Below, in pieces: positions 16,099 to 45,141 of a DNA stretch of 64,000 nt. The notes below the pieces were generated by a model. It saw only the letters and a program-made list of their open reading frames with translations. It was not told where the DNA came from and did not search any database. Both the position numbers and the translations under genes were made by a program. The stretch comes from Escherichia coli (lineage in GTDB: Bacteria > Pseudomonadota > Gammaproteobacteria > Enterobacterales > Enterobacteriaceae). The first letter of the stretch is position 1. Each line of letters begins with the position of its first letter. The stretch lies in the NCBI GenBank assembly GCA_023061495.1, contig GCA_023061495.1_3643.1. One strand, given 5' to 3'.

Positions 16099-17475
16099 AT
16101 GCCATATTTAGATAAAGTGGTAGATGTTACAGTTAACCTCGGAACCCAACCTATTGACACTGTAGGTTTCGAAACTCCGCTGTTCATCGCTATCCACAAC
16201 AACTTTACTGAGCGAGCTCGTGTATATGCTGAGCTGGATCAGATGGTGGAAGACGGTTTCGCACAAGGCTCTGCAGCGTATGAGTTTGCAGCAAAAGCTT
16301 TCGGCGGTGTATTCCCTCCACAGTATGTTATGATCGGCAGACAAGCCAAAGAAAAAACCACTGTAGATTTTAAAGGTATTGCTGCCGCAGCTGATACCGA
16401 TGTCGTAATGACCATTGCAAAAGGTGGCTACAATACTTCTTTGATAGTCCCTATCTCTGGTGGAACAGGTGCAACTCAGATTGCAGAGGCAATGAAGACT
16501 AAAATCGAAGCCGATGATAACTTGGACGATATCACTGTAGAGGCTGCTGAAGGTGTTATCACCATCACTGGTAACTGCACTGTTGGTTATCATACTGGTA
16601 ACTATACAATCAAAAATATCGCCAATGCTGAAAAACCTTCTACAGTAGTTGATAAGATCAATGCTGAGCGGGACAATTGGTACTTCCTGTGCCATGAAGA
16701 CCACACCGACATTGAAGCATGTGCTAAGTGGGCTCAGGCTAACTACAAGCTGCATGTCTACTCTACTGCAGAAGATGTGACTGGCAAAGAAAGTAACATC
16801 GCCACCAAACTGATGGCTGCACAATATGATAGTGTCGGCATGTACGATCCTCGTGCGGATAAAGATTTTCCGGAGGGTGGTATCATAGGTGCTATGGCAT
16901 CCAACGACCCGTCTTACGGTGACAGTTTGCACTTAAAACAGATGCCTGGTGTGATTGCACCATCTCTGACTTTGACTCAGCGTATGGCGATTTGGGAAAA
17001 CCACGTTAACTTCTACAGAATGATTAACGGTGTTGGCGCTTTCTGGGAAGGTAAGTGTGCTTCAGGTCAGTATGCAGACGCTATTCGTTTTGCACACTGG
17101 ATCAAGTTCAGATCTGAAGAATCCATGTTCGGGTACATGCATCGCCGCTCCAATATGGGTTTAAGCATGAAGATGTCTGATGATGATCTTCCGGTTATCA
17201 AGTCTGTTCTGATGAACAACCCGATCAATACTGGCATTAAGAATGGCGCGATCCTGACAGGTTTTGACGAAGACAACAATGTGTTCTACGACCCGATCAT
17301 CACAGTTCCTAAACGTGCAGAAATCCCAACCAATCAGTTGGCTGCTCGTGTTCTGGAAGGTGTGAAAGTAGAACTGGTGTATAACAACGCCTTGCACTTC
17401 GTTCGTATCCGGATCAACGTCCTCCTGGACAAAGTTGGTTCTAAATCCACCAATGCTGTTGCAATGACTGAATAA
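16099..17475 (+). CDS. tail sheath-like major tail protein
   Basis: 458 aa, AAGAGGA RBS, high-expression codon usage; immediately followed by a 157-aa tube-like protein, chaperone and tape measure; family assignment from memory only. Confidence 0.5.
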   Translation: MPYLDKVVDVTVNLGTQPIDTVGFETPLFIAIHNNFTERARVYAELDQMVEDGFAQGSAAYEFAAKAFGGVFPPQYVMIGRQAKEKTTVDFKGIAAAADTDVVMTIAKGGYNTSLIVPISGGTGATQIAEAMKTKIEADDNLDDITVEAAEGVITITGNCTVGYHTGNYTIKNIANAEKPSTVVDKINAERDNWYFLCHEDHTDIEACAKWAQANYKLHVYSTAEDVTGKESNIATKLMAAQYDSVGMYDPRADKDFPEGGIIGAMASNDPSYGDSLHLKQMPGVIAPSLTLTQRMAIWENHVNFYRMINGVGAFWEGKCASGQYADAIRFAHWIKFRSEESMFGYMHRRSNMGLSMKMSDDDLPVIKSVLMNNPINTGIKNGAILTGFDEDNNVFYDPIITVPKRAEIPTNQLAARVLEGVKVELVYNNALHFVRIRINVLLDKVGSKSTNAVAMTE

Positions 17476-17485
17476 GGAAGACTAG

Positions 17486-17959
17486 ATGGAAACTCAAATT
17501 TTAACTCCTTATGCGTATGACCCTAAAAAGGTCAAACTGTATCTGATGCAGCAGCGTGTCACTGGCTTCGCTGCTGACACCAAGATCGTTGTTTCAAGAA
17601 ACGAAGACAACATCTACCCTCACGTTGGTGTGGATGGTGAAATGTCTGCGGCACTGTCTCGTAACCAATCTGGTGTTATGACTGTATCCTTACAGAACAC
17701 TTCTGTATGGAACGCTTACCTTTCTGACTGGCAGAAACAGGCATCGATTACTGGTCTGGTATTCTTCCCGGTTCTGCTGGAAGGTAGCCAGGGTCCAGGC
17801 ATTGCTACAATCGGTTGGATCCAGAAACAGCCTGACCTGACTTACGGAACCGAAGTAGGTCAACTGGACTGGGATATCGGTATTCTGGATGCATGGCTCA
17901 ACCGTGACAACATCACTGGTGCTCTCACTGGCCTCGCAGGTCTTGCAGGTATTATCTAA
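17486..17959 (+). CDS. tail tube-like protein
   Basis: 157 aa directly after the sheath-like gene, AAGGAAG RBS, followed by a terminator. Confidence 0.45.
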   Translation: METQILTPYAYDPKKVKLYLMQQRVTGFAADTKIVVSRNEDNIYPHVGVDGEMSAALSRNQSGVMTVSLQNTSVWNAYLSDWQKQASITGLVFFPVLLEGSQGPGIATIGWIQKQPDLTYGTEVGQLDWDIGILDAWLNRDNITGALTGLAGLAGII

Positions 17960-17974
17960 GAGCACACTCTAGCA

Positions 17975-18003
17975 TAGGCCTCACCTTTGGGTGGGGCTTT
18001 TTG
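17975..18003 (+). terminator. terminator-like hairpin plus T-run
   Basis: gcctcacc-tttg-ggtggggc followed by TTTTTGCTTTT. Confidence 0.55.
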
Positions 18004-18064
18004 CTTTTAGGGTTTTGACATATTTGTTTGTTTTTAGTATCCTATAATAAAGGAGGAGACAGTC

Positions 18065-19690
18065 ATGGCTAAATTGAGTGCAGAAAGGTTTATCGAAAAA
18101 GCTCGTAGGGTTCACGGAGATAAGTACGACTATTCTCTTATAGAATACAAAACATGCAAAGATAAGATAGAAATAGTCTGCAATACCTGTGGTAACCACT
18201 TCAACCAGACACCGGATAACCATATAAATCTAAAAAGAGGATGCCCTGTTTGTGGAGCTGAGAGATCTGCAAAATCAAGAAAGGGTAAGAAATTCCCCCA
18301 TGAGCGTGGTAACAGGTGCACTACAGAAGAGTGGATCAAGAAGGTACTAAAAAGATATCCTGAAAATGCTGAAAAGTATGATTATAGTCATGTAGTGTAC
18401 AAGACCTCTGGAGATAAGGTTGAGATTCATTGCAAAATGTGCGGAAGAATAATGCACCAGAAACCTAGCAAGCATTTGTCAGGGCAAGGATGCAAGACTT
18501 GCGCAGCAAGATCTGTTTCTGCGAAAAAAGTTCCTAGCTTCCAAGAAATAGTTGAGAGATGTGTAGAAGTACATGGTAGTGATTATGAGTATTTTGAAGA
18601 CTCTTATGTGAACACCTCAACACCTATGATGATGCGCCACAAAGAGTGTGGGAATATCTTCATGCAGCGTCCTGAATTCCATTACGGGAAAGGACAAGGA
18701 TGCCCTCGTTGCTGTCGAAATCAGTCTAATGGTGAGAAAGAGATCCTGACGTTCATTAAAAGTGTGTATAGCGGCGATATTGAAGAGAACGTGCGTATTC
18801 TGGGCAACTTTAAGGATCCTTCCAAGAAAAAGATGGAGCTGGACATTTATGTTCCGGAGCTTAAGCTTGCTGTGGAATATAATGGTGCCTACTGGCACTC
18901 TGTAGACAGTAAGGGGAAATGGTACCACATCCTGAAAAGGAAGGCCTGTGAAAAACAAGGTATTCGCATGTTGTCTATCTGGGATTGTGATTGGCAGGAT
19001 GCTCGGAAAAGACCTATCATTGAGAGATATCTCAAGAATGCTTTAGGAGTCAAAGACGAGAAGACCGTCTATGCCAGAAAGTGCACAGTTAAAGATGTGG
19101 ACAATAAAACTTACCGTGACTTTATGGAGAAAAACCACATTCAAGGGTATGCCCCCGCCAAGGAAGTGAAGAAGGGTCTGTTTACATCTGACGGCGAGCT
19201 GGTAGCTTGTATGAGTTTTAAAATACTGAAAAACAGAGATCAAAAGGTAACCCCTTTCGTTATGTGGGACATGGTAAGGTATGCAACAAGCTGTAACGTT
19301 CCTGGTGGGCGTAGTAAGCTGTTTAAGCATATCCGAGAAGAGTTTAAGATGGATCATGTTCAATCCTTCCTTGACAGAGATTACTTCACAGGCGTGTCCT
19401 ATAAGGAGGAGGATGGCTGGATTTTGGCAGAGGACGATCAGGTGTCTACGAGCTTCTGGAGCTACCGTGGTGGCAGAATGCCAAGGCAGGCGTGGTGGAA
19501 GTCAAACATCCCAGAGACACTGAAGCATCTCGGGTTGGACGAGTCCTTATACGATCCTGAGAAAACACAAGAGTGGAATGCCAAAAATGCAGGCTGCTAT
19601 ATCCTTGAAAACAGTGGCAACTCTCGCTTTGAATGGCACAGTGATGAAGGTAAAAATGATCCTGCATACTTGGATTGGTTGAAAGGTTAA
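18065..19690 (+). CDS. endonuclease-like protein with three tandem Zn-ribbon modules (candidate free-standing homing endonuclease)
   Basis: 541 aa, AAAGGAGGAG RBS; three ~90-aa repeats each ending in a C-x2-C...C-x2-C pair (CNTCGNHF...CPVCG; CKMCGRIM...CKTCA; HKECGNIF...CPRCC); then ELDIYVPELKLAVEYNGAYWHS, resembling PD-(D/E)xK/Vsr-like cores; inserted between tube and chaperone genes. Confidence 0.45.
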   Translation: MAKLSAERFIEKARRVHGDKYDYSLIEYKTCKDKIEIVCNTCGNHFNQTPDNHINLKRGCPVCGAERSAKSRKGKKFPHERGNRCTTEEWIKKVLKRYPENAEKYDYSHVVYKTSGDKVEIHCKMCGRIMHQKPSKHLSGQGCKTCAARSVSAKKVPSFQEIVERCVEVHGSDYEYFEDSYVNTSTPMMMRHKECGNIFMQRPEFHYGKGQGCPRCCRNQSNGEKEILTFIKSVYSGDIEENVRILGNFKDPSKKKMELDIYVPELKLAVEYNGAYWHSVDSKGKWYHILKRKACEKQGIRMLSIWDCDWQDARKRPIIERYLKNALGVKDEKTVYARKCTVKDVDNKTYRDFMEKNHIQGYAPAKEVKKGLFTSDGELVACMSFKILKNRDQKVTPFVMWDMVRYATSCNVPGGRSKLFKHIREEFKMDHVQSFLDRDYFTGVSYKEEDGWILAEDDQVSTSFWSYRGGRMPRQAWWKSNIPETLKHLGLDESLYDPEKTQEWNAKNAGCYILENSGNSRFEWHSDEGKNDPAYLDWLKG

Positions 19691-19691
19691 A

Positions 19692-19720: not shown

Positions 19721-19763
19721 ACACAAATATGGTGCACAACATGACTAATAAGGATGCTATAAA

Positions 19764-20237
19764 ATGGCTATAAACTTTAGACCTACAACAGAGATTGATT
19801 TAGCAGGGCACAACTTTGTGATCACCCACTGGGGACCGATGAAAGCAATGAAAAACATGCCTAAAATCGGTAAGATTGTAGCTGTCCCGCTAGGTGCTAT
19901 CGGTGGATCTATTCTCTCAGGCGGTCAGAATATGGCAGAGGTCCTTCCTACAGCCCTGGCTTACCTGTTCCAAGAACTTGATGATAACTCTATCGAAGAG
20001 TTATTTAAAATCTTGTTTGAAGATATTACCGTGGATGGTGTGGATAAGCTTAACCCTGATGTTGTGTTTGCAGGGCATCTGCTGGAGATGATTAAGCTGG
20101 CAGGTAAGGTTCTGGAGGTTAACTACGGCTGTTTTTTCACACAAGACGGTTTAGGAAGCCTTCTGGAGATGTTACAGCAGATGGGTATGATTCAGCAGGT
20201 GAACAATCTGGATCAGACTCCGGAAGAGCAGGAATAA
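19764..20237 (+). CDS. tail assembly chaperone (G-like)
   Basis: 157-aa acidic protein immediately upstream of the tape measure gene. Confidence 0.5.
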   Translation: MAINFRPTTEIDLAGHNFVITHWGPMKAMKNMPKIGKIVAVPLGAIGGSILSGGQNMAEVLPTALAYLFQELDDNSIEELFKILFEDITVDGVDKLNPDVVFAGHLLEMIKLAGKVLEVNYGCFFTQDGLGSLLEMLQQMGMIQQVNNLDQTPEEQE

Positions 20238-20248
20238 GCAAGGTTGTT

Positions 20249-20497
20249 GTGAGGGCCAGTGAGTGGGCAGCCAAGAACAGTTCACTCAACTGGTTCGACT
20301 TTCTTTGGTGCAGGGTGCTTAAGAATTTCAAAGGGGAAAATTTTGAATCGCTAAATCTTGCAGATATGGCGTATTTCCTGAAGCTCTGTGAGTATCTTGA
20401 TATCGAAGAATTCCTAGATACCGTCCAAAACAGGGAAATGGAGCGGGAGCAGAAGGCTGCCGCAGCTGCTGCGAAAGCTAAGCGCAGGAGAGGATAA
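20249..20497 (+). CDS. possible -1 frame extension of the chaperone (GT-like) or separate small protein
   Basis: ORF in the -1 frame relative to 19764-20237; that frame is open for at least 80 nt upstream of the chaperone stop; GTG start with weak RBS. Confidence 0.3.
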   Translation: MRASEWAAKNSSLNWFDFLWCRVLKNFKGENFESLNLADMAYFLKLCEYLDIEEFLDTVQNREMEREQKAAAAAAKAKRRRG

Positions 20498-25962: not shown

Positions 25963-26778
25963 ATGGCTACGCTTTATAGTGATATATTGATGGACCCACA
26001 GACAGGCGATTTGGCGATAGACAAAGGTCTTGAGTTGATAGACTCAAACCAAGTAAGTCTGCGCCAGCGCCTGTGGATGAGGTTTAATACCTGGAAAGGG
26101 AGCTGGTACTTTGACGAGTTGTTTGGCTTCCCTTATATGGACTTTCTCAGTAAGAAGGTCATGAAGACTGTTCTTGATAACAAGATTATGGAAGTGGCAA
26201 GACAAGAGCCGGATGTGCTAAACATCATAAACTTCCAATCTACTATGGATCGAAGATCGAGAACATATCAAGCGTTCTTTGAGGTTGTTACCAAGGAGAA
26301 CGAGATTGTAAGACTTGCTTTCGTAGGTCTTGATCAGTTTACCTATCCACAGCCTGATGCTGGGACAACCTCTCTCTGTGATGATGAAGGTTGGATTAAG
26401 TGGGCTAATAAACTGTACTACCTGATCAACTTTAGATTGCCTAGAACCGGGGATGCCACATGGTGGAACCAGTATGCCGGTCCTGAGATGGAAAACCCGA
26501 TCCCTGTAGGCTCTCTGTTGACTCAGGATAAAGATCTGCTGATGACTGAGGCAGAACAAACCATTAACCGCAATACCTGGACGCTTGCTCCAGATGAGCG
26601 CGAATATTCTGGTGTTATTGCTACATCTAATGATGAGGCTATTGCCAACCAGTCTGACGTNNNNNNNNNNNNNNNNNNNNNNNNNNNNNNNNNNNNNNNN
26701 NNNNNNNNNNNNNNNNNNNNNNNNNNNNNNNNNNNNNNNNNNNNNNNNNNNNNNGGTCGTGCTATTGATGTTAACTAA
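25963..26778 (+). CDS. baseplate component (C-terminal part crosses an N block)
   Basis: N-terminus MATLYSDILMDPQTGDLAIDKGLELIDSNQVSLRQRLWMRF resembles small baseplate wedge proteins; the ORF continues through the N run at 26661-26754, so the C-terminus and frame are uncertain. Confidence 0.4.
   Translation: MATLYSDILMDPQTGDLAIDKGLELIDSNQVSLRQRLWMRFNTWKGSWYFDELFGFPYMDFLSKKVMKTVLDNKIMEVARQEPDVLNIINFQSTMDRRSRTYQAFFEVVTKENEIVRLAFVGLDQFTYPQPDAGTTSLCDDEGWIKWANKLYYLINFRLPRTGDATWWNQYAGPEMENPIPVGSLLTQDKDLLMTEAEQTINRNTWTLAPDEREYSGVIATSNDEAIANQSDXXXXXXXXXXXXXXXXXXXXXXXXXXXXXXXXGRAIDVN
26661..26754. other. block of 94 N (masked or unresolved sequence)
   Basis: Read directly; lies inside ORF 25963-26778. 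Confidence 1.
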
Positions 26779-26787: not shown

Positions 26788-27456
26788 ATGGCTGTAGCTT
26801 ATCCTACAATACCAATTCCAGATCTTGAAGATGCAGAAACAGTCCTGAGTGATGACTTCTTGGTTGTCAATCAGACTGATGGGACAAGAAAGGCTAAGAT
26901 TGACGATGTTGTCAACGATCTCAGCATTACTAAAATAGTCTATTTCACAGAGGGCGGCTATCTTAAGAGCAAGAAGGACTTTGCTTATGACCCAGAGACC
27001 AAGCGCTACTACACGTGGAACGGGGATTATCCTAAAATAATCCTCCCAGACTCTACTGTAGATGGTGCTGGGGGTGTGTCTGCAAAAGCCTGGTCTGTTT
27101 TTGGAGAGCTTGCTGCAACTTCTTCTGGTAGAATAGTTGATTACGGGTCTATTGGTGGTCAGCTTGATATGGACCTTGAAGTTGCTGACACTTTTAAAGT
27201 TCGACTAACTTCAAATACCACGATCTCTTTTGAGAATCAAACAGAAGGTCTTGAAGGGGTGGCGAGAACTATAACCGTATGCATTACTCAGACATCTGGC
27301 GGCAACAAAGTCTATTGGCCTGATAATGTTAAATGGGCATACGGAAGAGATCCTATCCTAACATTTACAGCTGGTGCAACAGATATTTTCAAGTTAGAAA
27401 CCTACGACAACGGGTTAACTTGGTACGGGGCACTGATTATCGCAGGAGCTATCTAA
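26788..27456 (+). CDS. receptor-binding-protein anchor-domain protein (paralogous to the N-terminus of the 1478-aa fibre)
   Basis: N-terminal ~110 aa share a pattern with ORF 30091 (DD/DY-LVV-Q-D-TR-KI-DVV ... F-EGG-L ... DFAY ... W-G--P ... AW). Confidence 0.45.
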   Translation: MAVAYPTIPIPDLEDAETVLSDDFLVVNQTDGTRKAKIDDVVNDLSITKIVYFTEGGYLKSKKDFAYDPETKRYYTWNGDYPKIILPDSTVDGAGGVSAKAWSVFGELAATSSGRIVDYGSIGGQLDMDLEVADTFKVRLTSNTTISFENQTEGLEGVARTITVCITQTSGGNKVYWPDNVKWAYGRDPILTFTAGATDIFKLETYDNGLTWYGALIIAGAI

Positions 27457-27457
27457 G

Positions 27458-30055: not shown

Positions 30056-30090
30056 CATAGGGGGCTGTTTGCCCCCTTTCAGGAGAAAGA

Positions 30091-33000: not shown

Positions 33001-34527
33001 GACCTTAACGATTACAAAGCGGATCGCGAAGGTATTTACCATCAAGAGGCAAATGCCAACGCCACAGCGGAAAGACACTACCCACCAGGGAAGCAGATGG
33101 CTGGTACGCTGATCGTGCTTAGAAACTCTGCCAACGAAGGTACAGGTTGTGTCCAGATATATAAAATGTATCTTGGGGGAACGTGGGAAAGGTACTATAA
33201 TAACACTGGCAGCGGAATGAACTGGAGCCCTTGGAAGAGAACGAGCTTCCCAGAAAGTACAACTGCCCCAGTCATGCCTGACCTGTGGTTGCCTTTAACC
33301 TCTAATCTAAAACCTGTACTAGGTGAAGGTGAGATGGTGTTCTCCAGACCTTCTACAGCAACATATTTCACTAAGCGCGGTGTCATGGCTGTTGCACAGG
33401 CAAACCAACCACGTTTCGAAAGAGATGGTCTGCTCATTGAAGGTCAAAGGACAAATCTGATGCTTAACAGTGAAGACCCGAGCAAATGGGGAGCCCAGTC
33501 ACAGATTACGGTCGGCAACACTGTAACAAACACCAACGGCACAAAAGGTGCAAGATTTACAGTAAGCAACGTATCCGGTGTAGAAACAACGGCGTTAAAC
33601 CTGGCTACAGTTCCAGCCACCCGAGGTGCAGATGTAACAGGTGCTGAGAAATTTTGTACTGGATCTATTATTGCAAGAGGTGGTAAAGCTCACCAGAGAC
33701 TGCGTGTAAGATTCGACATGTATAACGGATCCACCACAGTATTCCAGGGTGATGCCTATGTTAACCTGTCAACACTTGAAGTTAAAACAACAGGTGGTGC
33801 AGCTGGGAGAATTAAAGTAAAAGCTGAGAGATGGCAAACAGCCGGACCTGCTTGGATAAGGGTTGTTGCTACGTTTGAGGCAGTGGCCTCTGACATGAAT
33901 ATTGGGTGCCAGTTCCAGATTGCCCCGCCGGAGGGTTCTCAACACGCCGCAGGGGATTGGATTGACGTCGCAATACCTCAGTTTGAGTTAGGATCTTGTG
34001 AGTCCTCGTTTATCCCTACAGGGTCTTCACCAGTGACTAGGGCAGCAGACCTTTGTAAATTCCCAATGACTGATAATTTAGCACCTAGACCGTTCACCAT
34101 CGCCGCTACTGTGGATGCCAACTGGAGAGGTTGGGGAAAAGCTCCTAACGCAGCTCCTAGGGTTATTGATACAGAGGGTCGCGCTGCATTTATCATGGGG
34201 TTTGGCTCTGCAGCGAATATTGCAGAAGATGGTTATCCATATTGCGATATTGGTGGTTCAAACAGACGTGTTTATGAGATGGCTAAAGCACGTAAGTTGA
34301 AGATGGGGTTCAGGATAAAAGAAGATGGTAAAACCTGCTCTTTTGCCAACGGTCTGGTGAGCACGGAAACACAATCTTCTTGGGAATTCCTGGCAGGAGG
34401 CGCTCTCATCCGTCTCGGCGGTCAAACAGCGACAGGAGAAAGACATTTGTTTGGTCATATTAAAGATGTAAGAGTTTGGAACTCTGCATTGACCGATACC
34501 CAGCTTATGATGGAGAGTGTTGAATAA
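30091..34527 (+). CDS. long tail fibre protein with internal repeats
   Basis: 1478 aa; N-terminal anchor domain shared with 26788; internal repeated modules (NNANGGTGCRQEYYPF and NSANEGTGCVQIYKMY; QGGTGAR and AAGGTGAT). Confidence 0.6.
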   Translation: MADIKVVRIESLPATTAVTEDDYLVVQQPDLTRRVKIGDVVHVDGTVSHVISFKEGGKLNGPMDFAYFEEEDLYLRWKGEFPHTVPALSSPYADGGITDAAWMVYTDPSLREELESTIGASMIMTAEGQSVQDVMDVTVQTANDAKALAQRVDFGTVHTVGDVIHLVNFVGPAVIEEGRTTNYPSEAAGEKFLNGVVSRRDTTTVDGIFRGATSGAMYTIAVTNGVATTKRIALRDEFKRLEANNPTRTVIRAGDDLNTAGYLQLDATGRWGMWNQQTASWQPLAIEQGGTGARDAAGVRINIGAFYKQRAALEANFNINNLTGNQDGIYYQPMTANATEANGYPAGSGAGHLIVWQNNANGGTGCRQEYYPFSNVDVWYLRTYQANTNQWTAWQPMVRPRNDDTFRSHIGLGKNNSPAFGHLYLAQYSGDVKSASGILHGDKYNTDGVLEHGYRIYSEVRNDNKAWLTIHLHKGAKGSETHRYLGFREDGVLDCPKYMQVGDLNGQLANWGLGEWIRSSGAERGFWGSKKAAKMVVWDGGMDESGNGTLEWGVYNNRKAKWEPLPQAAGGTGATTLADAQNLFKVPVAAGVKDFLTLPRTAGMEDGKYYPIIVRTDPYYAPTTGTDITIVTRSSSGSDPMNCATLQCHYRTGGWTDRGDSFQGVINFYQNEKAILGCVSPTRGKQEYVAFYVESRAFPVSVYTSRNVLEVFTRENDWQVGNVTNNQDGVKFCAPLASDNLSLAIKGDDVTNTRILAEFKGTPGFYTGGSTDRHYIGTPDRMVLMSKTEMPPVEMWYNGLNYICPGSQTTRKALFSNAGFQAASEGTGDLINNTFTSKCGNGARLQGQAEFRSTPEAGQVIVRDVVGSAHRFYNFNKDGTFSAPGGFVCHTGADWNNQFGPNNPSKILAGNVNGPEGSMVVGGLSVAFSGNYAFQMAGSLDQLYTRSIERGNHRAWNKVIQHRGQGLGTSDLNDYKADREGIYHQEANANATAERHYPPGKQMAGTLIVLRNSANEGTGCVQIYKMYLGGTWERYYNNTGSGMNWSPWKRTSFPESTTAPVMPDLWLPLTSNLKPVLGEGEMVFSRPSTATYFTKRGVMAVAQANQPRFERDGLLIEGQRTNLMLNSEDPSKWGAQSQITVGNTVTNTNGTKGARFTVSNVSGVETTALNLATVPATRGADVTGAEKFCTGSIIARGGKAHQRLRVRFDMYNGSTTVFQGDAYVNLSTLEVKTTGGAAGRIKVKAERWQTAGPAWIRVVATFEAVASDMNIGCQFQIAPPEGSQHAAGDWIDVAIPQFELGSCESSFIPTGSSPVTRAADLCKFPMTDNLAPRPFTIAATVDANWRGWGKAPNAAPRVIDTEGRAAFIMGFGSAANIAEDGYPYCDIGGSNRRVYEMAKARKLKMGFRIKEDGKTCSFANGLVSTETQSSWEFLAGGALIRLGGQTATGERHLFGHIKDVRVWNSALTDTQLMMESVE

Positions 34528-34859
34528 TGAATACTTTTACCCTTGGGTTTACTGGTAGGGAGGATTTTAACGGTTTCATGGACGAAATCGGCTTTTACGA
34601 GAACGAGGTGTTGCAAAACACCCTTCTTGTAGAGGTTGTCGGGTTTATTTACACAGAAACTGAAGACACTTATGAGGCCGAGGACGAGTTTGGCAACATG
34701 GTTGTCTACCCAGTTTGCGAGAAAAGTAAATTGTTTTATGTCAACGTTCTGGCTCTAGACGAGGATGCAGAAAACATCGTCTCGAAAAGCGGAAAAGTTG
34801 TAGATCCGATAAGGTTGAACATGTTCGACCAATCAGTATCTACCTTGGAAGCACTTTAA
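34527..34859 (+). CDS. small acidic protein after the fibre (possible fibre chaperone)
   Basis: 110 aa, start overlaps the fibre stop; followed by a strong terminator. Confidence 0.3.
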   Translation: MNTFTLGFTGREDFNGFMDEIGFYENEVLQNTLLVEVVGFIYTETEDTYEAEDEFGNMVVYPVCEKSKLFYVNVLALDEDAENIVSKSGKVVDPIRLNMFDQSVSTLEAL

Positions 34860-34865
34860 AGTATT

Positions 34866-34896
34866 GCCCTCGCTTCGGCGGGGGCTTTTTGTTTGT
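34866..34896 (+). terminator. rho-independent terminator
   Basis: ccctcgc-ttcg-gcggggg stem followed by CTTTTTGTTT. Confidence 0.75.
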
Positions 34897-34956
34897 ATTG
34901 CGTATTAACTTAAAATCTGGTAAAATAACTATCATAATTGTTAACCGGGAGGCACA

Positions 34957-35547
34957 ATGTTTTTATGGGAAAGGCCTAGATACCTTCCAGATATTAGACT
35001 GGAGCTACTGGCAGACATCGTTACATTTAAAAGCCCGTTTACAGGTAAGACGCAAAAAGTCACCTATGCCACGCCTAACTGGAAAGGCACTTTGACGGTT
35101 TCCAATATCAGCGAGTCTCAGTTGTTGGAGCTTAAAAGTTTTGTTGATCAGGTTTACAAAGATGGAAATATTTTTCTTATCAAGGCTTATGGGCATTCAG
35201 TGACCTCCAACGAGCCAATCGCTCTTGGACCAACTGGTAACGACGATTTTTTGAAGACGGTTGGTTGGGAGCCTAACAGGGATATAGCCAGAGCTGGGGA
35301 TAAAATATCTGTCAATGATGAGTTGAAAGTGGTGACAGCCTCAGTACGAAGTGATGGTGTTGGGGCCGCTGTTATAAACATATCCCCAAGACTTAGGAAA
35401 CCTATTGCCGCAGGGGATACCATGAAAATAATAACTCAATCTCCGAAGGGTAGATTTCATATCCGAGATCTTTATAAAATTAAGCAAAAGGTTGATGCTA
35501 TGCAGAAAGGTGATAATATAGTTATCAACTTCTTTGAGGATTTCTAA
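34957..35547 (+). CDS. minor tail protein, lambda M-like (tentative)
   Basis: TQKVTYATPNWKGTLTVSNISESQLLELKSFVDQVYKDGN resembles the lambda gpM core as I remember it; first of a run ending in the J-like gene. Confidence 0.4.
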   Translation: MFLWERPRYLPDIRLELLADIVTFKSPFTGKTQKVTYATPNWKGTLTVSNISESQLLELKSFVDQVYKDGNIFLIKAYGHSVTSNEPIALGPTGNDDFLKTVGWEPNRDIARAGDKISVNDELKVVTASVRSDGVGAAVINISPRLRKPIAAGDTMKIITQSPKGRFHIRDLYKIKQKVDAMQKGDNIVINFFEDF

Positions 35548-36100
35548 GATGATAAGAGCGCCATTAGATAATTTATTTCTTGAAAAGCTAGAGCTTGATG
35601 GTGTTGAGATCTTAATTGCTGCAAAGCTAGAGCTGCCAACAGGGACTGTCAGGGTGTGCTCAGGAACTGGTGTTGTGGTTATTGAGGGGCAACATTTTAT
35701 AGGGATAGGTGGATCAGCAACATTGACTGCTGTGTCTGAGAAAGATGCCACCAACTTCGGATCTGTGGTAGCAACATTGAACGGGTTTGATCCTAAATAT
35801 GTTGGCGATCTACTGAAGACGGAGTACTCTGGTTGCCGTGCCACGTTATATATCACCGCTATGGAGAATGGTTTACCTGTCACAACTAATGGCTTGTTTG
35901 ACGGCCTTATAACAGACATGGCTATTCAGACAGGGGAGAATAGTGCTCTGTCCATATCCATCTCTTCCATCTTCAACAGCTGGTTAAGAGGTTTTCCTTA
36001 TCGATACACAGAGGAAAGCCATAGCTCAAGAAACGATAACGACAGATTTTTTAAATATGTGGATCAGGTGGCGAGCCGCCCGATCATTTGGGAGGTTTAA
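35534..36100 (+). CDS. minor tail protein (L-like position)
   Basis: 188-aa ORF overlapping its neighbours; no motif recognised. Confidence 0.3.
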   Translation: MRISKMIRAPLDNLFLEKLELDGVEILIAAKLELPTGTVRVCSGTGVVVIEGQHFIGIGGSATLTAVSEKDATNFGSVVATLNGFDPKYVGDLLKTEYSGCRATLYITAMENGLPVTTNGLFDGLITDMAIQTGENSALSISISSIFNSWLRGFPYRYTEESHSSRNDNDRFFKYVDQVASRPIIWEV

Positions 36101-36525
36101 TGAGCACACATCCTCGTTTAGTAGACTGGCAAGAAAGGTTGTGGAAAGTATTTGACGAAGAAGCCACCGTCCCGTTTGAATGGGGATTCCACGATTGTTG
36201 CACTTTTGCTGCTAAGTGTGTTGATGCCCAATACGGAACAGATTTTCTTTCTAACTTTGAAGGAACGTATAAAACAGAGTTGGAAAGCAAGAGATGGTGC
36301 ATGCTTCGTTTCAAAACCACACACCTACCTACTGTTTTTGATCTCTTTTTGACTCGACTGGATACTCCTAAACAGGTCCAGCGTGGTGATATTGTTATTT
36401 TCGAAGGTCTGAACGGCCTCACCGCTGGTGTGTTTTGGAACAACCAGATTTGGGCGAAAGGTGATAAAGGGATCTTTACGTTCGATATGAAAGATTCTAT
36501 CGTTGTTGATGTCTGGAGGTATTAA
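36088..36525 (+). CDS. tail assembly protein with NlpC/P60-like Cys motif (lambda gpK C-terminal-like)
   Basis: EWGFHDCCTFAAKCV and VQRGDIVIFEG compare with the HGVTDCYTLFRDAY and AQPGDVLLC segments of lambda K as remembered. Confidence 0.5.
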   Translation: MGGLMSTHPRLVDWQERLWKVFDEEATVPFEWGFHDCCTFAAKCVDAQYGTDFLSNFEGTYKTELESKRWCMLRFKTTHLPTVFDLFLTRLDTPKQVQRGDIVIFEGLNGLTAGVFWNNQIWAKGDKGIFTFDMKDSIVVDVWRY

Positions 36526-39500
36526 TGCCAATTGCAATGATTGATAACATCGTTGCTTCTGCAAGATCTTCAAGTTATGACTGGAACGCATCCAAGGCAG
36601 CTCTGGCTGACAGCCTGAACACTGTTACCACCAGAACTCTGGATAAGATTTTCGAGGGCAACAAATCTTACAGAAGTCAGCAAGATAGACAAAAGCTTCT
36701 CAGATCTTCTGCTGCACCTTGCTCTGTAGTATATGGAAAGACACGCACATCTGGATTGCTTGCGTTTTTGGAGCAGGACAGAGACAGAACCCTTCATTGT
36801 GCTATTGTTCTTGCCAATCACCCTCTGGAAGGTATAGAAGATATACTTATCGACGGTAATCCTATTTCCTCGTATGGAGATTTGGTATCGTGGGAGCTGC
36901 ATAACGACAGAAAAACCTCTGATCCTTTCATGGGCACACACTGCCCATCGTGGTCACCGGACATGATAGGTAGAGGGATCAGTTGGCTACGAGTCAGCTT
37001 CAGGTTTGACCCTAACAAGTTTCCTTTTGGGTTGCCAAACGTCACACTCGTCAAGGTTGGTAAAAAATGCNNNNNNNNNNNNNNNNNNNNNNNNNNNNNN
37101 NNNNNNNNNNNNNNNNNNNNNNNNNNNNNNNNNNNNNNNNNNNNNNNNNNNNNNNNNNNNNNNNNNAAAAAAATGCTATGATCCTCGCACCAGTAAAGAG
37201 GTGTATACCAATAACGCTGCCTTGGTGATTCTGGACTATTTAAGAACATACCTTAAATGTCCTGACGAAACCATCAACTGGGAGTCCTTCAAGGAGGCTG
37301 CCAACATATGCGACGAGGCTGTAAGAAACGCAGACGGAACCAGCGAGCGTCGTTACACCATTAATGGTGAGTTTGACATGGATGAAGCACCAGCGAGTAT
37401 TATGGCAGAAATGCTGAAAGCTTGTGGTGCAGATCTTAGCTATGTAGCTGGTAAGTATGGTCTGCTGGTAGGTGCATACTATGGCCCGGCAACAATGACA
37501 CTGAGTGAGGACTGTGTTTGCGGTGAGGTTAAGATCTATCCGGAAGCCTCTTTCGACAAGAGATCGAACACAATAACTGGCAGATTCACTAGTCCAACCA
37601 AAGGGTATTCTGAAACAGATTTTCCATCAGTGTTTGTCCCAGAGTGGATAGAGAAGGATGGAGAAAGAAAGATAATTGATATAGATTATCGTTTTGTTAC
37701 CAGCCCTTATCAAGCTCAGCGTGTTTCTGCAATCTTCTTAAGACGTGCCCGAGCTGGCAGGATTATTGAAGTAACCTGCAATATGCGAGGTTTTAAATTT
37801 AAACCTGGGCGTTACGTTACGATGAATCTTCCAAGTATTGGTATAGTGGGCCAAGAAATGAGGGTTCTTGAATGGGAGTTCACCAAAAAGGGCGGTGTCA
37901 AGGTAAAACTCCGTCAAGATGCTAAAGAGTGGAATGATGCCACAGGGCAACTTCCGGATTCTGGAGATGTGGATATTCCGATATCCCCGTCCGGCGTAGC
38001 TCAACCGCAAAACTTCAGATACTCTGTTCTTCAAGCTGGGGAAGTAACTCATGGTGTTTTGGCTTGGGACAACGTTGGAACTTATGCTCAAAATATTGTG
38101 CAGGTAAGAAAGAACGGAGAGATTATTTGGACAGCACAGACAGTTGAGCAGTTTGTCCGCGTAGAAGGATTGACCAAAGGGTCATACACAGCAACCGTGG
38201 TTGCAACATCTTATAAAGGTGGTGTATCTCCAGAAGCTTACTGCGAGTTTAACATTCAAGCACCTGAAGCTCCTGTTTCTGTAGAAGTTAAGCAGGGATA
38301 CTTTGCTATCACCTTGATTCCGCACAGCAGGGACTTAGCAAGTGTAAGCACCCAGTATGATTTTTGGACATCTGGTATGACAAGGTTGCCGGACACAAGT
38401 GATGCAACCGTTACTTCAAAAGCCACCCGTATGGGTGTTGGTTCAACTTGGACATCTGAAGGTCTGCAGAACGATAAGATTTATTATTGGTATATTCGAA
38501 CCACAAACGCTTTTGGTAGTTCTCAGTTTGTAGAATGCGCTGCACGCTGCTACACCTCTATTGAAGATTTGATGCCTCAGATAGATGCTGAATTTAAAAA
38601 GACAGAAACTTATAAAGAGTTGATGAGCACTTTAGATTCCTCTATCGAGGAGGTTGAAAATCGTGTCACAGAACTTAACAGGTACATGGATGGTAGAGTT
38701 GACGAGGCTTTTGACCGCATGGAAGGTGAGTTCTCTAGAGTAGACAAGCTGTATGCTCAGTTGGGGGATAGGGTTGGAATATTCATCCAAGAAACCCACG
38801 ACAACTTCCAGGACGTTAATGGAACGCTTACCACTCTAGACCAGAAACTGGTAGCCACTCAGAACAAGTTTGCAGATGATCTTTCTAAAGAAAGTGGTAA
38901 GCTGACTTCTCTAATACAGACCACCAACAAAGCTACAACCGATCTGTTAAATCAGAAAACTGAAGCTTTGGACGAGAAGATTGTTTCAACAAGGGGTGAA
39001 TTGGAAGATGCTTTGGCACAGGAAAGCTCTGAGCTGAACTCTCTGATTGTTTCAACCAATAAAACGACTACAGATCTCCTTAATCGGAAAACCGAGGCTT
39101 TAGACAATAAGCTGACAGCAACGAAAGGTGAGTTGACCAACAATCTGCAAAATGAGAGTGCTAAACTATCATCCTTGATTGAGTCAACCAACAAATCCAC
39201 CACTGATCTTCTTAATAAGAAAACAGAGGCGTTGGATGAAAAACTGGTTGCTGCACAGGGCGAGTTGACTGAGCAGATCGGAGATGTTGAAAAAGGCTAT
39301 CTGGCTGGTGATAAGAGCCTAGAGGGCAAGTTGAATACTCAAAGATCTGAGTTGGATGCGAGCATTCTGAGCACTAACCAGGCCACTGTGGACTTGCTGA
39401 ACAGAACTTCTGAGACTCTTGACCAGAAGATTAGCCAGACCAACGCCACAGTGTCCAAAAACTACACCACGCTTGATGGTAAGATAAACACCGCCAAGTC

Positions 39501-40776
39501 TGATCTTAATACGTTGATTTCTACCACCAACAAGGCCACAACTGACCTATTGAATCAGAAAACGGCAGCTTTGACTGAGCAGTTAACCACTGCTAAAGGG
39601 CAGATTACAACCAACACCAATAACATTACCGGGTTGGATAATAAGCTGACTCAGACTAAGAAAGAATTGTCTGCGAATATTTCTGAAACTAATAAGTCTA
39701 CTGTTGACCTTATTAATGGCACAGCGTCAGCTATTCGTCAAGAACTTGCTGTTGCTAAGCAGGAGATTATTGATGATGTTGGAGATGTGACCGAACTCAG
39801 AGCTGCAGTGGCTACAACATCTAAGGCTGTGACCGACTTAGAGGGCAAAGTAAATGCTCAATGGGGCACAAAAATACAGGTAGACTCCGCAGGGAATAAG
39901 TATGTGGCAGGTATCCAGTTAGGCATGGAAGGCTCTGGAGGCCAAGTTCAGTCATATTTCATGGTTAGCGCAAACAACTTTGCGGTATACAACCCAGGCA
40001 ATGGAACAGCAACCCTTGCTTTCGCAATCAAGAACAACCAAGCGTTCTTGAAAGACGCTTTTATAGAGAACGGCACGATCTCTTCTGCCAAGATCGCGCA
40101 AGAAATTTCGTCAAACAACTACGATGGCAACGGGTACCACAAATACGGTTGGTATATTAACAAGAACGGGCACGCCCAGTTTATGGATGTGTGGGTGAAA
40201 GGTAACATCAACGCTAGTGCAGGTAACTTCACAGGGGCAGTTAACGCCACCAGTGGTACCTTCCGTGGAGATGTTTATGCCAACAATGGTAGCTTTAGAG
40301 GGACCATAGATGCAACAGGAGGTACATTCCGTGGACGTGTAGAAGCTTCCGTTATCCGTGCTAACCAGTTCGAAGGTGCGATTGTTGCACACAGGACTTA
40401 CGGAGATTGTGCTCCAGTATATAACTCGCAGCAAAGGGTTTGCCGTTGGAGGTGGAGATATGTGGACAACGTGCAAGGCCAAGGTAAAAACGTAACATTC
40501 TTCTTTAAACTGAACGGTACTCGTGCCAACTCTCAACTAAATGCGTGGATAGCTGGTCACCAACTACTTGCTGGCAAGAAGTACGGAAACGATAACGATG
40601 GCATGTGTGCAGTTGGGATAACAGGTCTAGGTGAACAAACTATAGACATTATTATCGAGATTTACACACCATGGTCAACAGGGAACGTGACAGGCATTAC
40701 AATATCTTGTCCTACAGTCGTTGTAAGTCGTTCTAACTCAAGTTTCCAAGGTCCTTGGAATGAGTCTCACGACTAA
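36525..40776 (+). CDS. central tail fibre / host specificity protein, lambda J-like (spans an N block; carries a coiled-coil repeat array)
   Basis: Several segments match lambda J as remembered: KYVAGIQLGMEG...NNFAVYNPGNG, QAPEAPVSVEVKQGYFAITLIPH, IYYWYIRTTNAFGSSQFVECAA, and an N-terminal PLEGIEDILIDGNPIS. Track ORFs 36525-37181 and 37006-40776 are joined across the N run 37071-37166; the exact junction is unknown. Confidence 0.65.
37071..37166. other. block of 96 N (masked or unresolved sequence)
   Basis: Read directly; lies in the N-terminal region of the J-like gene. Confidence 1.
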
Positions 40777-40782
40777 CAGTAA

Positions 40783-40812
40783 AGCCCCGCTTCGGCGGGG
40801 TTTATTTTTATG
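40783..40812 (+). terminator. rho-independent terminator
   Basis: ccccgc-ttcg-gcgggg stem followed by TTTATTTTTA, directly after the J-like gene. Confidence 0.8.
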
Positions 40813-40880
40813 CTCAGATTGACTATTGTTACAAAATTTGGTAAAATACCTTGTAGAGATTTTCATACCGGAGGAGTGAC

Positions 40881-42371: not shown

Positions 42372-42382
42372 GGCGGTGAGAT

Positions 42383-43069
42383 ATGGCAGAGATTAAGTCG
42401 GATGTCAACCACATCCACACTCTGCCAGATTTTGTTCAGGGAGGTCTTGATTACCTGCCTGGAGATTTTCTGGCTGAGAAGGTTAATTTAGTCACATTCT
42501 TAACCGTGTACCTTAAAAGGTTGGAGGATGTTGATAAAATGCTGGTAGGCTTGGCTGAAGGAAGATTGCTTAACAATGCCAGCGGGAGATACCTTGACGA
42601 AGTTGGTAATCAACTCGGTATTCTTCGGAATGGGCTTTCAGATGCGGATTTTCGTGCTACCCTGGTTATTCAGCAAGCAGCAGCATCAAGGGGTGGGACT
42701 CGCGAAGATGTCATCTCCACCTTGCGACAATTGTTCGGAAGAGACAATTTCGATACGTGGAAAGGTGACAATTTCAGGTTTGACATAAACATTAGAAAAA
42801 CTTGCTTTGACATATTGCAGTCTATCGACCAGATCTTAGATATGCTGCCATTGCCTTGTCATTTGCGTCTTACGGAGTCGCAAGGGCAAGCTTTTGGTTT
42901 TGAAGGGGACTCTACAACTCTCGGCTTCGGATCAGTGTGGGAAGAAAACCAGTTCGGGGTTGGTGGGCTGGCTACTTTGTTATATGTTCCTGACGTAAGA
43001 CCTGATTGGGATACCACAACCATTTATTGTGAAAGTATTACAGTAAACGCAACTAGACAGGAGGGTTAA
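42383..43069 (+). CDS. baseplate/tail protein (gpI-like position)
   Basis: 228-aa ORF between the J-family-like gene and a large fibre-type gene. Confidence 0.3.
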   Translation: MAEIKSDVNHIHTLPDFVQGGLDYLPGDFLAEKVNLVTFLTVYLKRLEDVDKMLVGLAEGRLLNNASGRYLDEVGNQLGILRNGLSDADFRATLVIQQAAASRGGTREDVISTLRQLFGRDNFDTWKGDNFRFDINIRKTCFDILQSIDQILDMLPLPCHLRLTESQGQAFGFEGDSTTLGFGSVWEENQFGVGGLATLLYVPDVRPDWDTTTIYCESITVNATRQEG

Positions 43070-45141
43070 TGGCAACAGCTGTTTTTAAACCTTACCGTGA
43101 TTACTCTACAATGGCTGCACGGTTTCATTACCGCACAGTTCAGGATACTGCAGTTCCGGGTAGGGATTATGATCATGTTGAGGGCGATGTAACTATCCCG
43201 GTTGGGGCAACCAGTATTGAGATCCCTGTAGAAATTGTTGACAAATTGCCAAACAGGTTGCCAAGAAGCTTCTTTATGGAGTTTTCATCAAACTCCCAAG
43301 GGGTTATGATTGGAACACAAAGAGCGAAATGTACAATAGTTTCAGATGAGAATCTTGACAGAATATCTTGGGATACCGTTGAGGAGAGAATGTTTCACCC
43401 AAGATACTGGGTTACAACCACACAGCAGACTGAAAGCACCTGTATTGTTGCGGATAATAACTGCTGTATTAACCGTTTAGTGTCAAGAACATATGGGGGC
43501 ATGGCTGGGTGCATTTGGGAAACAGTTGACAAGTATGACCATTTCGGCATTGGATTTGATGATCACTACGAGATGAGAAACACCAAGCTTTGGTTCAGAA
43601 TGTCAATAACCAATGCCAGCAACTTCTCCACCCCTGAAAAGATGATTATGACTGTAGACCTTGTTGATGGTACAATCATCTATGTTCCTTTAGCTCAATA
43701 TGCTGTCAGCATCTCAGAGGATAAGAATGTTGCAGAAATTCATATTGATTTCGAGGACTGCGTCGGGATGGACCAGAACAACAACATGATGGGTGTTGAT
43801 CCTCGGCAGGTGAGAAGGATTCTAATACCACTTATGCCTAAAGATTGGGTAGGTAATAGCACAGACCCGAGAACGGAAAATGTAGAGTGTGAGTTGCGTC
43901 TAGATCTTCTTCAGCCGGATACAGGCTGGAAAATGATGCAACTTAACAATATTCAGGTGAAAGAACACGATGTTGGGATCTGCACAGCATATGACGATAT
44001 GTGGAACGTATCCCCTTTAAGGGTGTTGAGCAATATCAAGCGTCTGGGCTATACAGGAACCATAAACCATTATGTTGGTATGAGCCATTATTATGACTAC
44101 ACATGGTCAGGAACCCAATGGTCTATAAACAAAACAGGAGCTCTAAACGCTGCAGCTTATAAATGGCATGATGATTTTATGTACAATGCCAAACGACATG
44201 ACTTCGACGTTATGCAGTCTGTAAGCTTTGAGCTTTATAGCGATGCCTGTCCGTTGGAATGGACCCAGAGAGACTGGAACGATAACTATGCTAAAACAGG
44301 CTATACGCCTTGTAGTTACCTCCTGTCTCCAACCATTGAAGAGGGCATGAATTTCCTTACTGCAGTATTTAAGAATTTTGCATCAGCCGCTATGAGAAAC
44401 AACCTGCCAGTGATTATGCAGATTGGTGAACCGTGGTGGTGGTTCAATACCGATACTCGTAAGCCTTGTATTTATGACTACCCTACAAAGCAGGCGTTTT
44501 ATGATGAGACTGGTGAATATGCACTAGACATTGGGACTATTGACGATCCTAAAACTGGCGGTGTTTATGACAAGTATGTAGCATTTTGTCGTGGTAAGCT
44601 TGGCGCTCGTATTGCAGCCATTTCAAAGGCAATAAAAGCACACGCTGCATCGGCTCAGATGACAGCTTTACTGTTTTTCCCCACTATTATGGAAACCGAG
44701 CTTACGCAAAAACTGAACCTTGCTGACCAATATAAAAAGGAAGCAGGTGCTCTTGATTTCTTCTGCACTGAGTGCTACGATTGGGTGATGCAGGGAGGTA
44801 TTGAAAAGGCAAAAGAGTCTGTAAACATACCTATCGTTAAGTTAGGTTGGAAACCGTCTGAAATACAATACCTTGCAGGGTTCGTTCCTAGCAAAGAGCT
44901 TGCTCCGGTATATGGCTACGACCCAACCAGGAATTACCAAGAATTTTTATGGAGATGTATTTGCGGAAACATGGCAACCATAGAGTATAGATACCCTGAG
45001 GTAAAACAGTATGTGTGGGCATACCCGCAAGTAATGTCTGACAGCATCACTGTTACCGCCAGAGATTCTACTGTTCTGCATATGGGGCAGGTTGCTCTGA
45101 AAGGGTATGTAGAAGATGTTGTTCCGCCAGACTTCTCATAA
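43069..45141 (+). CDS. large tail structural protein
   Basis: 690-aa ORF start-coupled to the upstream gene; Trp/Tyr-rich globular sequence. Confidence 0.4.
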   Translation: MATAVFKPYRDYSTMAARFHYRTVQDTAVPGRDYDHVEGDVTIPVGATSIEIPVEIVDKLPNRLPRSFFMEFSSNSQGVMIGTQRAKCTIVSDENLDRISWDTVEERMFHPRYWVTTTQQTESTCIVADNNCCINRLVSRTYGGMAGCIWETVDKYDHFGIGFDDHYEMRNTKLWFRMSITNASNFSTPEKMIMTVDLVDGTIIYVPLAQYAVSISEDKNVAEIHIDFEDCVGMDQNNNMMGVDPRQVRRILIPLMPKDWVGNSTDPRTENVECELRLDLLQPDTGWKMMQLNNIQVKEHDVGICTAYDDMWNVSPLRVLSNIKRLGYTGTINHYVGMSHYYDYTWSGTQWSINKTGALNAAAYKWHDDFMYNAKRHDFDVMQSVSFELYSDACPLEWTQRDWNDNYAKTGYTPCSYLLSPTIEEGMNFLTAVFKNFASAAMRNNLPVIMQIGEPWWWFNTDTRKPCIYDYPTKQAFYDETGEYALDIGTIDDPKTGGVYDKYVAFCRGKLGARIAAISKAIKAHAASAQMTALLFFPTIMETELTQKLNLADQYKKEAGALDFFCTECYDWVMQGGIEKAKESVNIPIVKLGWKPSEIQYLAGFVPSKELAPVYGYDPTRNYQEFLWRCICGNMATIEYRYPEVKQYVWAYPQVMSDSITVTARDSTVLHMGQVALKGYVEDVVPPDFS

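Follow-up and report, generated by a model that had tools for sequence, protein, structure and literature searches.

A siphophage-type tail-tip gene module in the fibre locus of a contractile-tailed, rV5-like Escherichia phage

The fibre locus of an rV5-like phage contains four adjacent genes of the kind that encode the tail tip of siphophages. We analysed a 64,000-nucleotide stretch of DNA (the window; contig GCA_023061495.1_3643.1 of GenBank assembly GCA_023061495.1, filed under Escherichia coli) that is part of a draft genome of a myophage of the genus Vequintavirus. The four-gene tip operon is at 34957-40776, between fibre genes and baseplate wedge genes and with a terminator at either end (Table 1). 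In order, the genes encode a protein resembling the siphophage distal tail protein (Dit), a protein in the position of lambda gpL (the L-position protein), a protein with a predicted NlpC/P60 fold (the K-like protein), and a J-type hub and central fibre protein. The operon begins 12.07 kb past the stop codon of the tape measure gene, as had been noted (at about 12 kb) in a first-pass annotation of the sequence that described a lambda-like M/K/J tip set together with contractile-tail genes. The three genes of that set are present, but the description missed a fourth, at 35549-36100 in the gpL position.

The tip module has its own transcription signals. One strong intrinsic terminator closes the upstream fibre unit and another directly follows J, and promoter-like sites with TGGTAAAATA are found upstream of both the tip operon and the wedge unit. 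There are four exact copies of TGGTAAAATA in the window (14549, 19712, 34918 and 40839), all on the + strand, between called open reading frames (ORFs) and just 5' of structural genes; with one mismatch allowed there were 21 matches, compared to 6.2 expected. TGGTAAAATA probably serves as the -10 element of a late promoter of the phage. Based on the flanking terminators and the shared TGGTAAAATA element, we conclude that the tip module is a discrete late transcription unit within the phage's own regulon. There was no gpI-like gene between the K-like gene and J: the K-like gene ends at the first base of J (36525), as it does in the siphophage relatives.

The four genes are a syntenic block that is also found in siphophages. 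In five siphophage lineages, the tape measure gene is followed by genes for proteins of ~195, ~193 and ~140 amino acids and then by J, with gene sizes and stop/start overlaps as in the window. The products of all four genes match their counterparts in phage VogelGryff: the Dit-like protein the gene right after the tape measure gene (32% identity, E=3e-29), the L-position protein the second gene (38%, E=5e-46), the K-like protein its counterpart (46%, E=2e-48), and residues 48-721 of J the J-like tip protein (54%). Among 80 IMG/VR loci retrieved with the K-like protein, 77-79 have the Dit-like and L-position genes immediately upstream, the L-position gene being syntenic in 79. Based on the shared order, sizes, overlaps and identities, we conclude that the block in the window is homologous to, and syntenic with, a tail-tip module that is widespread in siphophages. 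Its plan is lambda-like, as first described, but judged by sequence it is of the Queuovirinae/T5-Dit/GTA (gene transfer agent) type, with the Queuovirinae as its nearest relatives, and J is the only member with sequence homology to a lambda protein.

The first gene most probably encodes a Dit of the T5 pb9 type and not a member of the lambda gpM family, to which it had been likened. A profile of 129 family members, collected in an exhaustive HMMER search, matched over its full length the Dit of DT57C (8hqz_H, E=4.8e-7) and T5 pb9 (E=2.4e-4), and the family matched the Dit of the GTA-like phage vB_MseS-P1 with an hhalign probability of 95.6%. None of the 129 members had a Pfam match to gpM (Phage_min_tail), and the protein is 196 amino acids long compared to 109 for gpM. 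The hhalign probability against gpM was 1.9%; this and our other hhalign tests against lambda proteins used single lambda sequences and are therefore weak negative evidence. Homologue searches with single sequences of the Dit-like and K-like proteins returned close relatives only, and searches of PDB sequences with the Dit-like, L-position and K-like proteins (phmmer and profiles of 6 and 16 sequences) gave nothing significant. The Dit-like and L-position proteins had no Pfam or NCBIfam family when 6-129 relatives were scanned singly. An AlphaFold2 model of the Dit-like protein, built from six near-identical sequences, had a pLDDT of 38 and was not used.

The second gene is a candidate for a hub subunit. 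Relatives of its product are annotated as 'minor tail protein L' or 'DUF2163', the family matched the hub of vB_MseS-P1 with an hhalign probability of 49% (P=1.7e-4), and one family member had a weak match (E=0.089) to PF09931, a baseplate hub N-terminal domain. Against the single lambda gpL sequence the hhalign probability was 0.1%; a scan of IMG/VR with gpL returned only copies that were 99-100% identical and could not be used for a gpL profile. The four-cysteine Fe-S cluster is not present in the L-position protein, which has two cysteines in 183 residues, neither of them invariant. Homologues of gpL that do not have the Fe-S domain are known (PMC13243795).

The third gene encodes a protein that, based on fold prediction, has the NlpC/P60 fold. 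Its start is likely the ATG at 36100 (141 amino acids, as in homologues) and not the TTG at 36088 (145 amino acids) that had been called; the gene coordinates given earlier for the sheath, tube, chaperone, tape measure, spike, Baseplate_J and M-, K- and J-like genes otherwise agree with ours. The family matched the peptidase of vB_MseS-P1 with an hhalign probability of 99.5%, and the cysteine of its D-C-C motif is invariant in 54 family sequences, across which no histidine (and so no catalytic one) is conserved. The protein is a single domain of 141 amino acids, missing the second, N-terminal domain of lambda gpK, and its relation to the single gpK sequence is weak (hhalign probability 9.9%, P=0.003). 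The earlier description as an NlpC/P60 K-like protein holds for the fold but not for the second domain and the conserved histidine of gpK. We also observed that the K-like protein evolves much faster than its neighbours: between the window and a divergent metagenomic lineage (L008, 10001-10426) it is 58% identical, compared to 84% for the Dit-like and 87% for the L-position protein.

The fourth gene encodes a J-type protein that is interrupted in the window by an assembly artefact. The call of a J-like protein at 36525-40776 is supported by a match to the solved lambda J (8iyk, E=1.6e-28) and by Ig_J, Ig_J_second and Phage_Tail_Tip domains, but J is not one clean ORF in the window. It is split into two ORFs in different frames, and the break is exactly at a run of 96 N (37071-37166) that, compared to phage EmilHeitz, is flanked by a 9-bp duplication and one extra A. 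Removing the N-run, the extra A and the duplication restored an uninterrupted ORF of 1381 amino acids, indicating that the break is an artefact of assembly. The score of J with the NCBIfam model lambda_TipJ was 152 bits, compared to a cut-off of 1950. J is a homologue of lambda J, with the hub, Ig_J, FN3 repeats and Phage_Tail_Tip in the same order, and not an equivalog.

The two ends of J are specific to the genus. The first 47 residues are genus-specific, and the last ~140 have no homologue outside the genus. Within Vequintavirus, most of the variation in J is in its central coiled coil, which differs in length and sequence; the hub and the C-terminal tip are conserved. Because of a length polymorphism in the coiled coil (window 38711-39133 versus L001:30762-30878), J of the window is 102 amino acids longer than that of EmilHeitz (L001), and the L008 version has 1199 amino acids. 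The 'allelic variation' of the J gene described in the BASEL paper is this polymorphism.

Among the myophages in the phage records searched, the tip module is restricted to one genus. In tblastn searches of all 50,697 phage records with the Dit-like protein, the K-like protein and the J hub, matches fell into two classes: Vequintaviruses, almost all at 90% identity or more, and matches below 60%, which were solely siphophages of 29-83 kb. The latter included Seuratvirus and Nonagvirus and phages of Vibrio, Pseudomonas, Serratia, Providencia, Acinetobacter and Roseobacter. The J hub was at least 95% identical in 117 records, the next best match being 59.5%, in Queuovirinae, and no J-hub homologue was found at E<=1e-5 in any other myophage. 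Every Vequintavirus carries the module. KpS8, of the sister genus Mydovirus, shares the backbone from the sheath to the short fibres, and the space from its sheath initiator gene to its wedge gene is taken by other fibre genes, with no Dit, L, K or J. We infer that the module was acquired horizontally by an ancestor of the genus and was then placed under the native late promoter.

The four genes are under strong purifying selection and, by evolutionary criteria, functional. The ratios of nonsynonymous to synonymous divergence (dN/dS) between the window and EmilHeitz were 0.023 for Dit, 0 for L, 0.053 for K and 0.071 for J, and those of the sheath, tube, hub, spike and wedge genes were 0.007-0.046. 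The L008 lineage, with backbone proteins that are 79-93% identical to those of the window, keeps all four genes (Dit 84%, L 87%, K 58% and J 74% identity).

Table 1. Features of the tail, baseplate and fibre region, in order along the window
Feature	Position	Strand	Basis
Contractile tail sheath, 458 aa	16099-17475	+	DUF3383; phrog_205 'tail sheath' E=4.7e-118; PDB 9cb9_A phiTE sheath E=6.3e-144; phi92 gp130 E=5.9e-48
Tail tube, 157 aa	17486-17959	+	PF11681 KPP10_Orf10 E=4e-9; phrog_280; orthologue annotated tail tube in EmilHeitz; rV5 gp52 identified as tube
HNH homing endonuclease, 541 aa, between tube and chaperone genes	18065-19690	+	phrog_559 E=1.3e-110
Tail assembly chaperone, 157 aa (19764-20237), and downstream 82-aa ORF	19764-20497	+	PF21822 Phage_TAC_15 E=1.1e-23
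Tape measure, 779 aa	20552-22891	+	PF20155 TMP_3 E=4e-18
Myophage tube initiator, Dit_like domain, 303 aa	22971-23882	+	PF21821 E=9.8e-23; equivalent to phi92 gp135
Baseplate plug/spacer, 126 aa	23895-24275	+	PF22479 Pam3_gp18 E=8.2e-19
Myophage baseplate hub, 332 aa	24275-25273	+	phrog_196 baseplate hub E=2.2e-83
Central spike with HxH apex, 225 aa	25273-25950	+	PF18352 N-terminal domain E=1.4e-9; C-terminus ...KGHTHSCPDGETSGPH
Sheath initiator (gp25-like)	25963-26778	+	phrog_4233, phrog_120; L008 orthologue with PF10934 Sheath_initiator
Three fibre/tailspike genes (222, 865, 1478 aa)	26788-34527	+	PF18668; PHROG tail fibre families
110-aa ORF	34527-34859	+	29% identity, E=2e-8, to 91-aa ORF after VogelGryff lateral fibre
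Intrinsic terminator closing fibre unit	34866-34885	+	GC stem, TTCG loop, T run
Promoter-like site upstream of tip operon	34910-34938	+	TGGTAAAATA
Putative siphophage-type distal tail protein (Dit), 196 aa	34957-35547	+	phrog_1302 distal tail protein E=3.7e-49
Putative hub subunit in gpL position, 183 aa	35549-36100	+	phrog_2048 tail protein E=8.9e-68
Predicted NlpC/P60-fold protein, 141 aa from ATG	36100-36525	+	DUF6950
J-type hub/central-fibre protein, 1381 aa with scaffold gap 37071-37166 removed	36525-40776	+	PF24421, PF24489, PF09327; phrog_31 central tail fiber J E=6.5e-163
Intrinsic terminator directly after J	40782-40803	+	
Promoter-like site for wedge unit	40819-40847	+	TTGACT-17-TAAAAT with TGGTAAAATA
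Baseplate wedge protein 1 (Baseplate_J), 496 aa	40881-42371	+	PF04865 E=4e-9; phrog_6; 60% identical to Mydovirus KpS8 wedge
Baseplate wedge protein 2, 228 aa	42383-43069	+	phrog_4056 baseplate protein E=6.5e-103
Fibre with N4 gp65-type NCTSP/TIM-barrel domains, 690 aa	43069-45141	+	PF23845 E=6.7e-80; PF23844

The tail that these genes accompany is contractile. The 458-amino-acid protein had been proposed to be a sheath, with a siphophage major tail protein as the alternative, and this alternative fails because the homologous sheaths of phiTE and phi92 have been solved using cryo-EM (cryo-electron microscopy). Electron microscopy has shown contractile tails on rV5 virions (PMC3606486). The proposed 157-amino-acid tube protein belongs to the KPP10_Orf10 family, and the spike ends in ...KGHTHSCPDGETSGPH, the HTHSCP-type apex that had been noticed earlier; the phi92 spike binds Fe through HxH motifs. 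The contractile tail and baseplate are complete: the gp25-like sheath initiator, the Baseplate_J wedge, the gp27-like hub and the central spike are all present, the 3' part of the sheath initiator gene being broken by an N-run (26661-26754). We rejected 18065-19690 as a tail gene; it is an inserted HNH homing endonuclease, in a 1.65-kb segment that is absent from EmilHeitz.

The phage is an rV5-like Vequintavirus. A megablast search of the phage records with 16099-40776 matched 145 records. This 24.7-kb stretch was at least 80% covered in one place in 109 of them, mostly at 90-96% identity and with gene order kept, and these are rV5-like Escherichia phages of the genus Vequintavirus. Between the spanins and the large fibre genes, the annotated EmilHeitz genome and the window are collinear. 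The composition of the surrounding sequence is typical for the genus. Eighteen GenBank records (MG0656xx) titled 'Campylobacter phage', with Campylobacter jejuni as host, are ~93% identical to this region of an E. coli Vequintavirus, and their host labels seem questionable.

The window contains four runs of 94-98 N (26661-26754, 37071-37166, 47386-47481 and 54486-54583) that resemble the joins between scaffolded pieces of a draft genome and give rise to false frameshifts. The run at 26661-26754 hides no sequence relative to EmilHeitz. The run at 47386-47481 stands for ~690 bp of EmilHeitz, leaving the second short-tail-fibre paralogue truncated (ORF 47207-47665).

The fibre genes upstream of the tip operon contain a second trace of exchange with siphophages. 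The 222- and 1478-amino-acid fibre proteins have Tail_spike_N anchors, and the C-terminal ~415 residues of the latter are related to the Seuratvirus lateral fibre (43% identity between residues 291-718 of the VogelGryff lateral tail fibre and window 33274-34521; tblastn, E=8e-104). Weak homologues of the 110-amino-acid ORF that follows adjoin side-tail-fibre genes of lambda-like phages. We rejected this ORF as a fifth member of the tip operon because it goes with the fibre allele and because L008, where the tip operon is retained, does not have it. The stretch 33274-34859 is a separate trace, and the exchange was broader than the tip operon. Modular exchange of the adsorption apparatus, which had been suggested from the mixture of genes, is supported by the absence of the module from Mydovirus, which shares the backbone, by the finding that all homologues outside Vequintavirus are in siphophages, and by this Seuratvirus-related fibre C-terminus. 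Downstream of the wedge genes, the 690-amino-acid fibre (43069-45141) also has a Calx-beta domain. The literature ties N4 gp65-type fibres to recognition of enterobacterial common antigen (ECA)/NGR glycans, linking Vequintavirus and N4, and the domains of the 690-amino-acid fibre agree with this.

The tip genes have been annotated before. They are in more than 100 GenBank records, under automatic labels such as 'tip attachment protein J', 'central tail fiber J' and 'distal tail protein'. The rV5 paper noted gp37, the J orthologue, as COG4733 with hub-like HHpred matches, and the N-terminus of a J-like fibre of Vequintavirinae has been described as 'common in central tail fibers'. In full-text searches, we found no paper recognising the complete four-gene siphophage tip module, its Queuovirinae affinity, its restriction to one genus of myophages or the structural problem that it raises.

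Based on the homology, distribution and selection described above, we believe, with a probability of about 60%, that the four genes are a horizontally acquired tip module of the Queuovirinae/T5-Dit/GTA type that is used as an accessory receptor-binding complex from within the fibre locus. In tips of the lambda, T1 and T5 type, the gp27-like hub fold is split between gpL (hub domain I) and gpJ (domains II-IV), with a hexamer of Dit on top (PMC13243795). By analogy, the L-position protein would provide hub domain I and J domains II-IV, and three copies of each would form a closed, gp27-like trimeric hub; a Dit hexamer would cap it, giving a tip complex of Dit6:L3:J3. The NlpC/P60-like protein may be an assembly factor or a minor component. 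J would be unable to build the trimeric hub alone, and so the whole set would have been co-opted together; that J cannot form the hub by itself would also explain why the four genes travel together. Authors who modelled Vequintavirus fibres likewise suspected that J needs partners for its hub. The complex, with the long coiled coil and the genus-specific C-terminal domain of J, would be mounted on the baseplate or the fibre network as an extra receptor-binding appendage, and the phage's own hub and spike would not be replaced. J does not close a non-contractile tube here: alongside a sheath, the genome encodes a hub and spike of its own, and it has no second tube or tape measure.

One observation places a product of the module in virions: the J orthologue of rV5, gp37, was detected there by mass spectrometry, with four peptides, one of them strong, and 5 spectra. 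Several points weigh against an accessory receptor-binding complex. This evidence for J in virions is thin, and the 19 loci detected in rV5 virions, in what is a shallow data set, did not include the three small tip proteins. The hub identity of the L-position protein, resting on synteny and weak profile matches, is suggestive. In siphophages, the Dit ring docks on the tail tube, and the hub lumen holds the C-terminus of the tape measure protein. No tape-measure-like or tube-like siphophage fragment was found in the window when all + strand ORFs of five siphophage loci were compared to it (tblastn). In cryo-EM of two Vequintaviruses, only three of the nine annotated fibres could be placed, all close to the baseplate, and the J-like protein was not located (PMC12143355). 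The same reconstructions left densities unassigned (PMC12143355).

The complex might instead be on the tail axis. In this arrangement there would be one J complex per virion, with the Dit ring under the baseplate, around or below the spike, and the central fibre would sense the terminal receptor and then open or fall off before the tube and spike pass. The module encodes what makes the axial cone in siphophages (Dit hexamer, trimeric hub and central fibre); the conservation across the genus of the J hub and C-terminal tip, with the coiled coil alone varying, is as expected of a conserved terminal-receptor binder, and the 5 spectra of gp37 would fit a low copy number. However, the phage encodes a hub and an iron-tipped spike of its own, and relatives that do not have the module have working baseplates. 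The baseplate reconstructions of the two Vequintaviruses report no central fibre, the tip genes sit in the lateral-fibre locus, and the literature assigns glucose of the lipopolysaccharide (LPS) core as the terminal receptor, tied to the short tail fibres. We therefore consider an axial position unlikely.

We are similarly doubtful that the genes are kept for J alone, with J a lateral fibre attached through its own N-terminus and the Dit-, L- and K-like proteins acting as assembly chaperones outside the virion. That the small proteins were not detected in rV5 virions and that the first 47 residues of J are genus-specific are both consistent with this possibility. In lambda, gpK is not known to be part of mature tails. 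In the solved tips of the lambda type, gpK is not among the proteins modelled (T1 paper, PMC11945409). However, Dit and the gpL-type subunit are stoichiometric parts of the hub in all solved tips of the lambda, T1 and T5 type; the L-position protein is 100% conserved between two phages at a synonymous divergence of 0.29, fitting a structural interface; and mass spectrometry in which the sheath itself gave 15 spectra is too shallow for small, low-copy proteins. Lastly, an artefact or remnant (a chimeric myophage/siphophage scaffold, a dead insertion or pseudogene, or an ordinary siphophage in which the supposed sheath is the major tail protein) is excluded, despite a scaffold with four N-runs, one of them in J, by the 109 independent phage records that cover the stretch in one place and order, the intact J ORF without the gap, dN/dS values of at most 0.07, a match to solved contractile sheaths at E=6e-144, and the contraction of rV5 tails.

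Tail-fibre mosaicism is common, but what it usually transfers is segments of fibres. In this case, a complete tip made of several proteins (ring, hub, accessory protein and central fibre) appears to have passed from non-contractile tails to contractile ones, and it has remained intact throughout a large genus whose phages are under study for biocontrol and therapy. If the accessory complex is on the virion, then it would be an unrecognised part of the multi-fibre apparatus of Vequintavirus, a candidate for fibre density that cryo-EM could not assign, and a natural example of a receptor-binding unit that is portable, assembles itself and could be used in host-range engineering. The module also raises the question of what a Dit ring docks on when it has no tail tube of its own. 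A more specific version, in which a contractile-tailed phage assembles the complete Dit6:L3:J3 tip as a working part of the virion, either an axial receptor-sensing fibre ahead of the spike or a hub-shaped branching node for other fibres, is improbable in our view; if true, the hub and Dit would be a conserved assembly unit that can be reused outside the tail tube.

The baseplate of the window is like those of phi92 and phiTE, which have the sheath, tube initiator, plug, hub, HxH spike, sheath initiator, two wedge proteins and several sets of fibres. The descriptions of phi92 and phiTE do not mention proteins of the Dit, L, K or J type. The tips of lambda (gpM, gpL, gpK, gpI and gpJ) and T1 have the same plan as the tip module, with a Dit hexamer, a trimeric hub subunit, a J-type fibre and an NlpC/P60-type protein encoded between (PMC11945409), and the Ig, FN3 and tail-tip domains of J are also found in lambda J. 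In contrast to lambda, no sequence relation to gpM or gpL could be detected (hhalign probability of at most 2%, with single lambda sequences), and there is no gpI-like protein; the L-position protein, with two cysteines, does not have the Fe-S cysteine cluster of gpL; and the K-like protein has one domain, 141 amino acids and no conserved histidine, compared to the 199 amino acids of gpK. The profile of the Dit-like family aligns over its full length with pb9 of T5 and DT57C, but T5 has a single-chain hub (pb3) and a collar, unlike the set in the window. The GTA-like phage vB_MseS-P1 has the same gene order, and its Dit and peptidase match the Dit-like and K-like families; the match of a GTA-type hub to the L-position protein (probability 49%) is suggestive.

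The closest systems are those of the Queuovirinae (Seuratvirus VogelGryff and Seurat, and the JenP1/9g-like Nonagvirus), which have the same four genes in the same order, of the same sizes (~195, ~190 and ~140 amino acids, then J) and with overlapping stop and start codons. Their J matches that of the window over the hub and onwards to the end of the FN3 domains, with a further match in the Phage_Tail_Tip region. In the Queuovirinae, the module directly follows the tape measure gene and ends the tail tube, whereas in the window it is 12 kb away, in its own terminator-bounded operon, beside the hub, spike and wedges of a myophage, and its J has a coiled coil that is 230-330 amino acids longer and a genus-specific C-terminal domain of ~140 amino acids.

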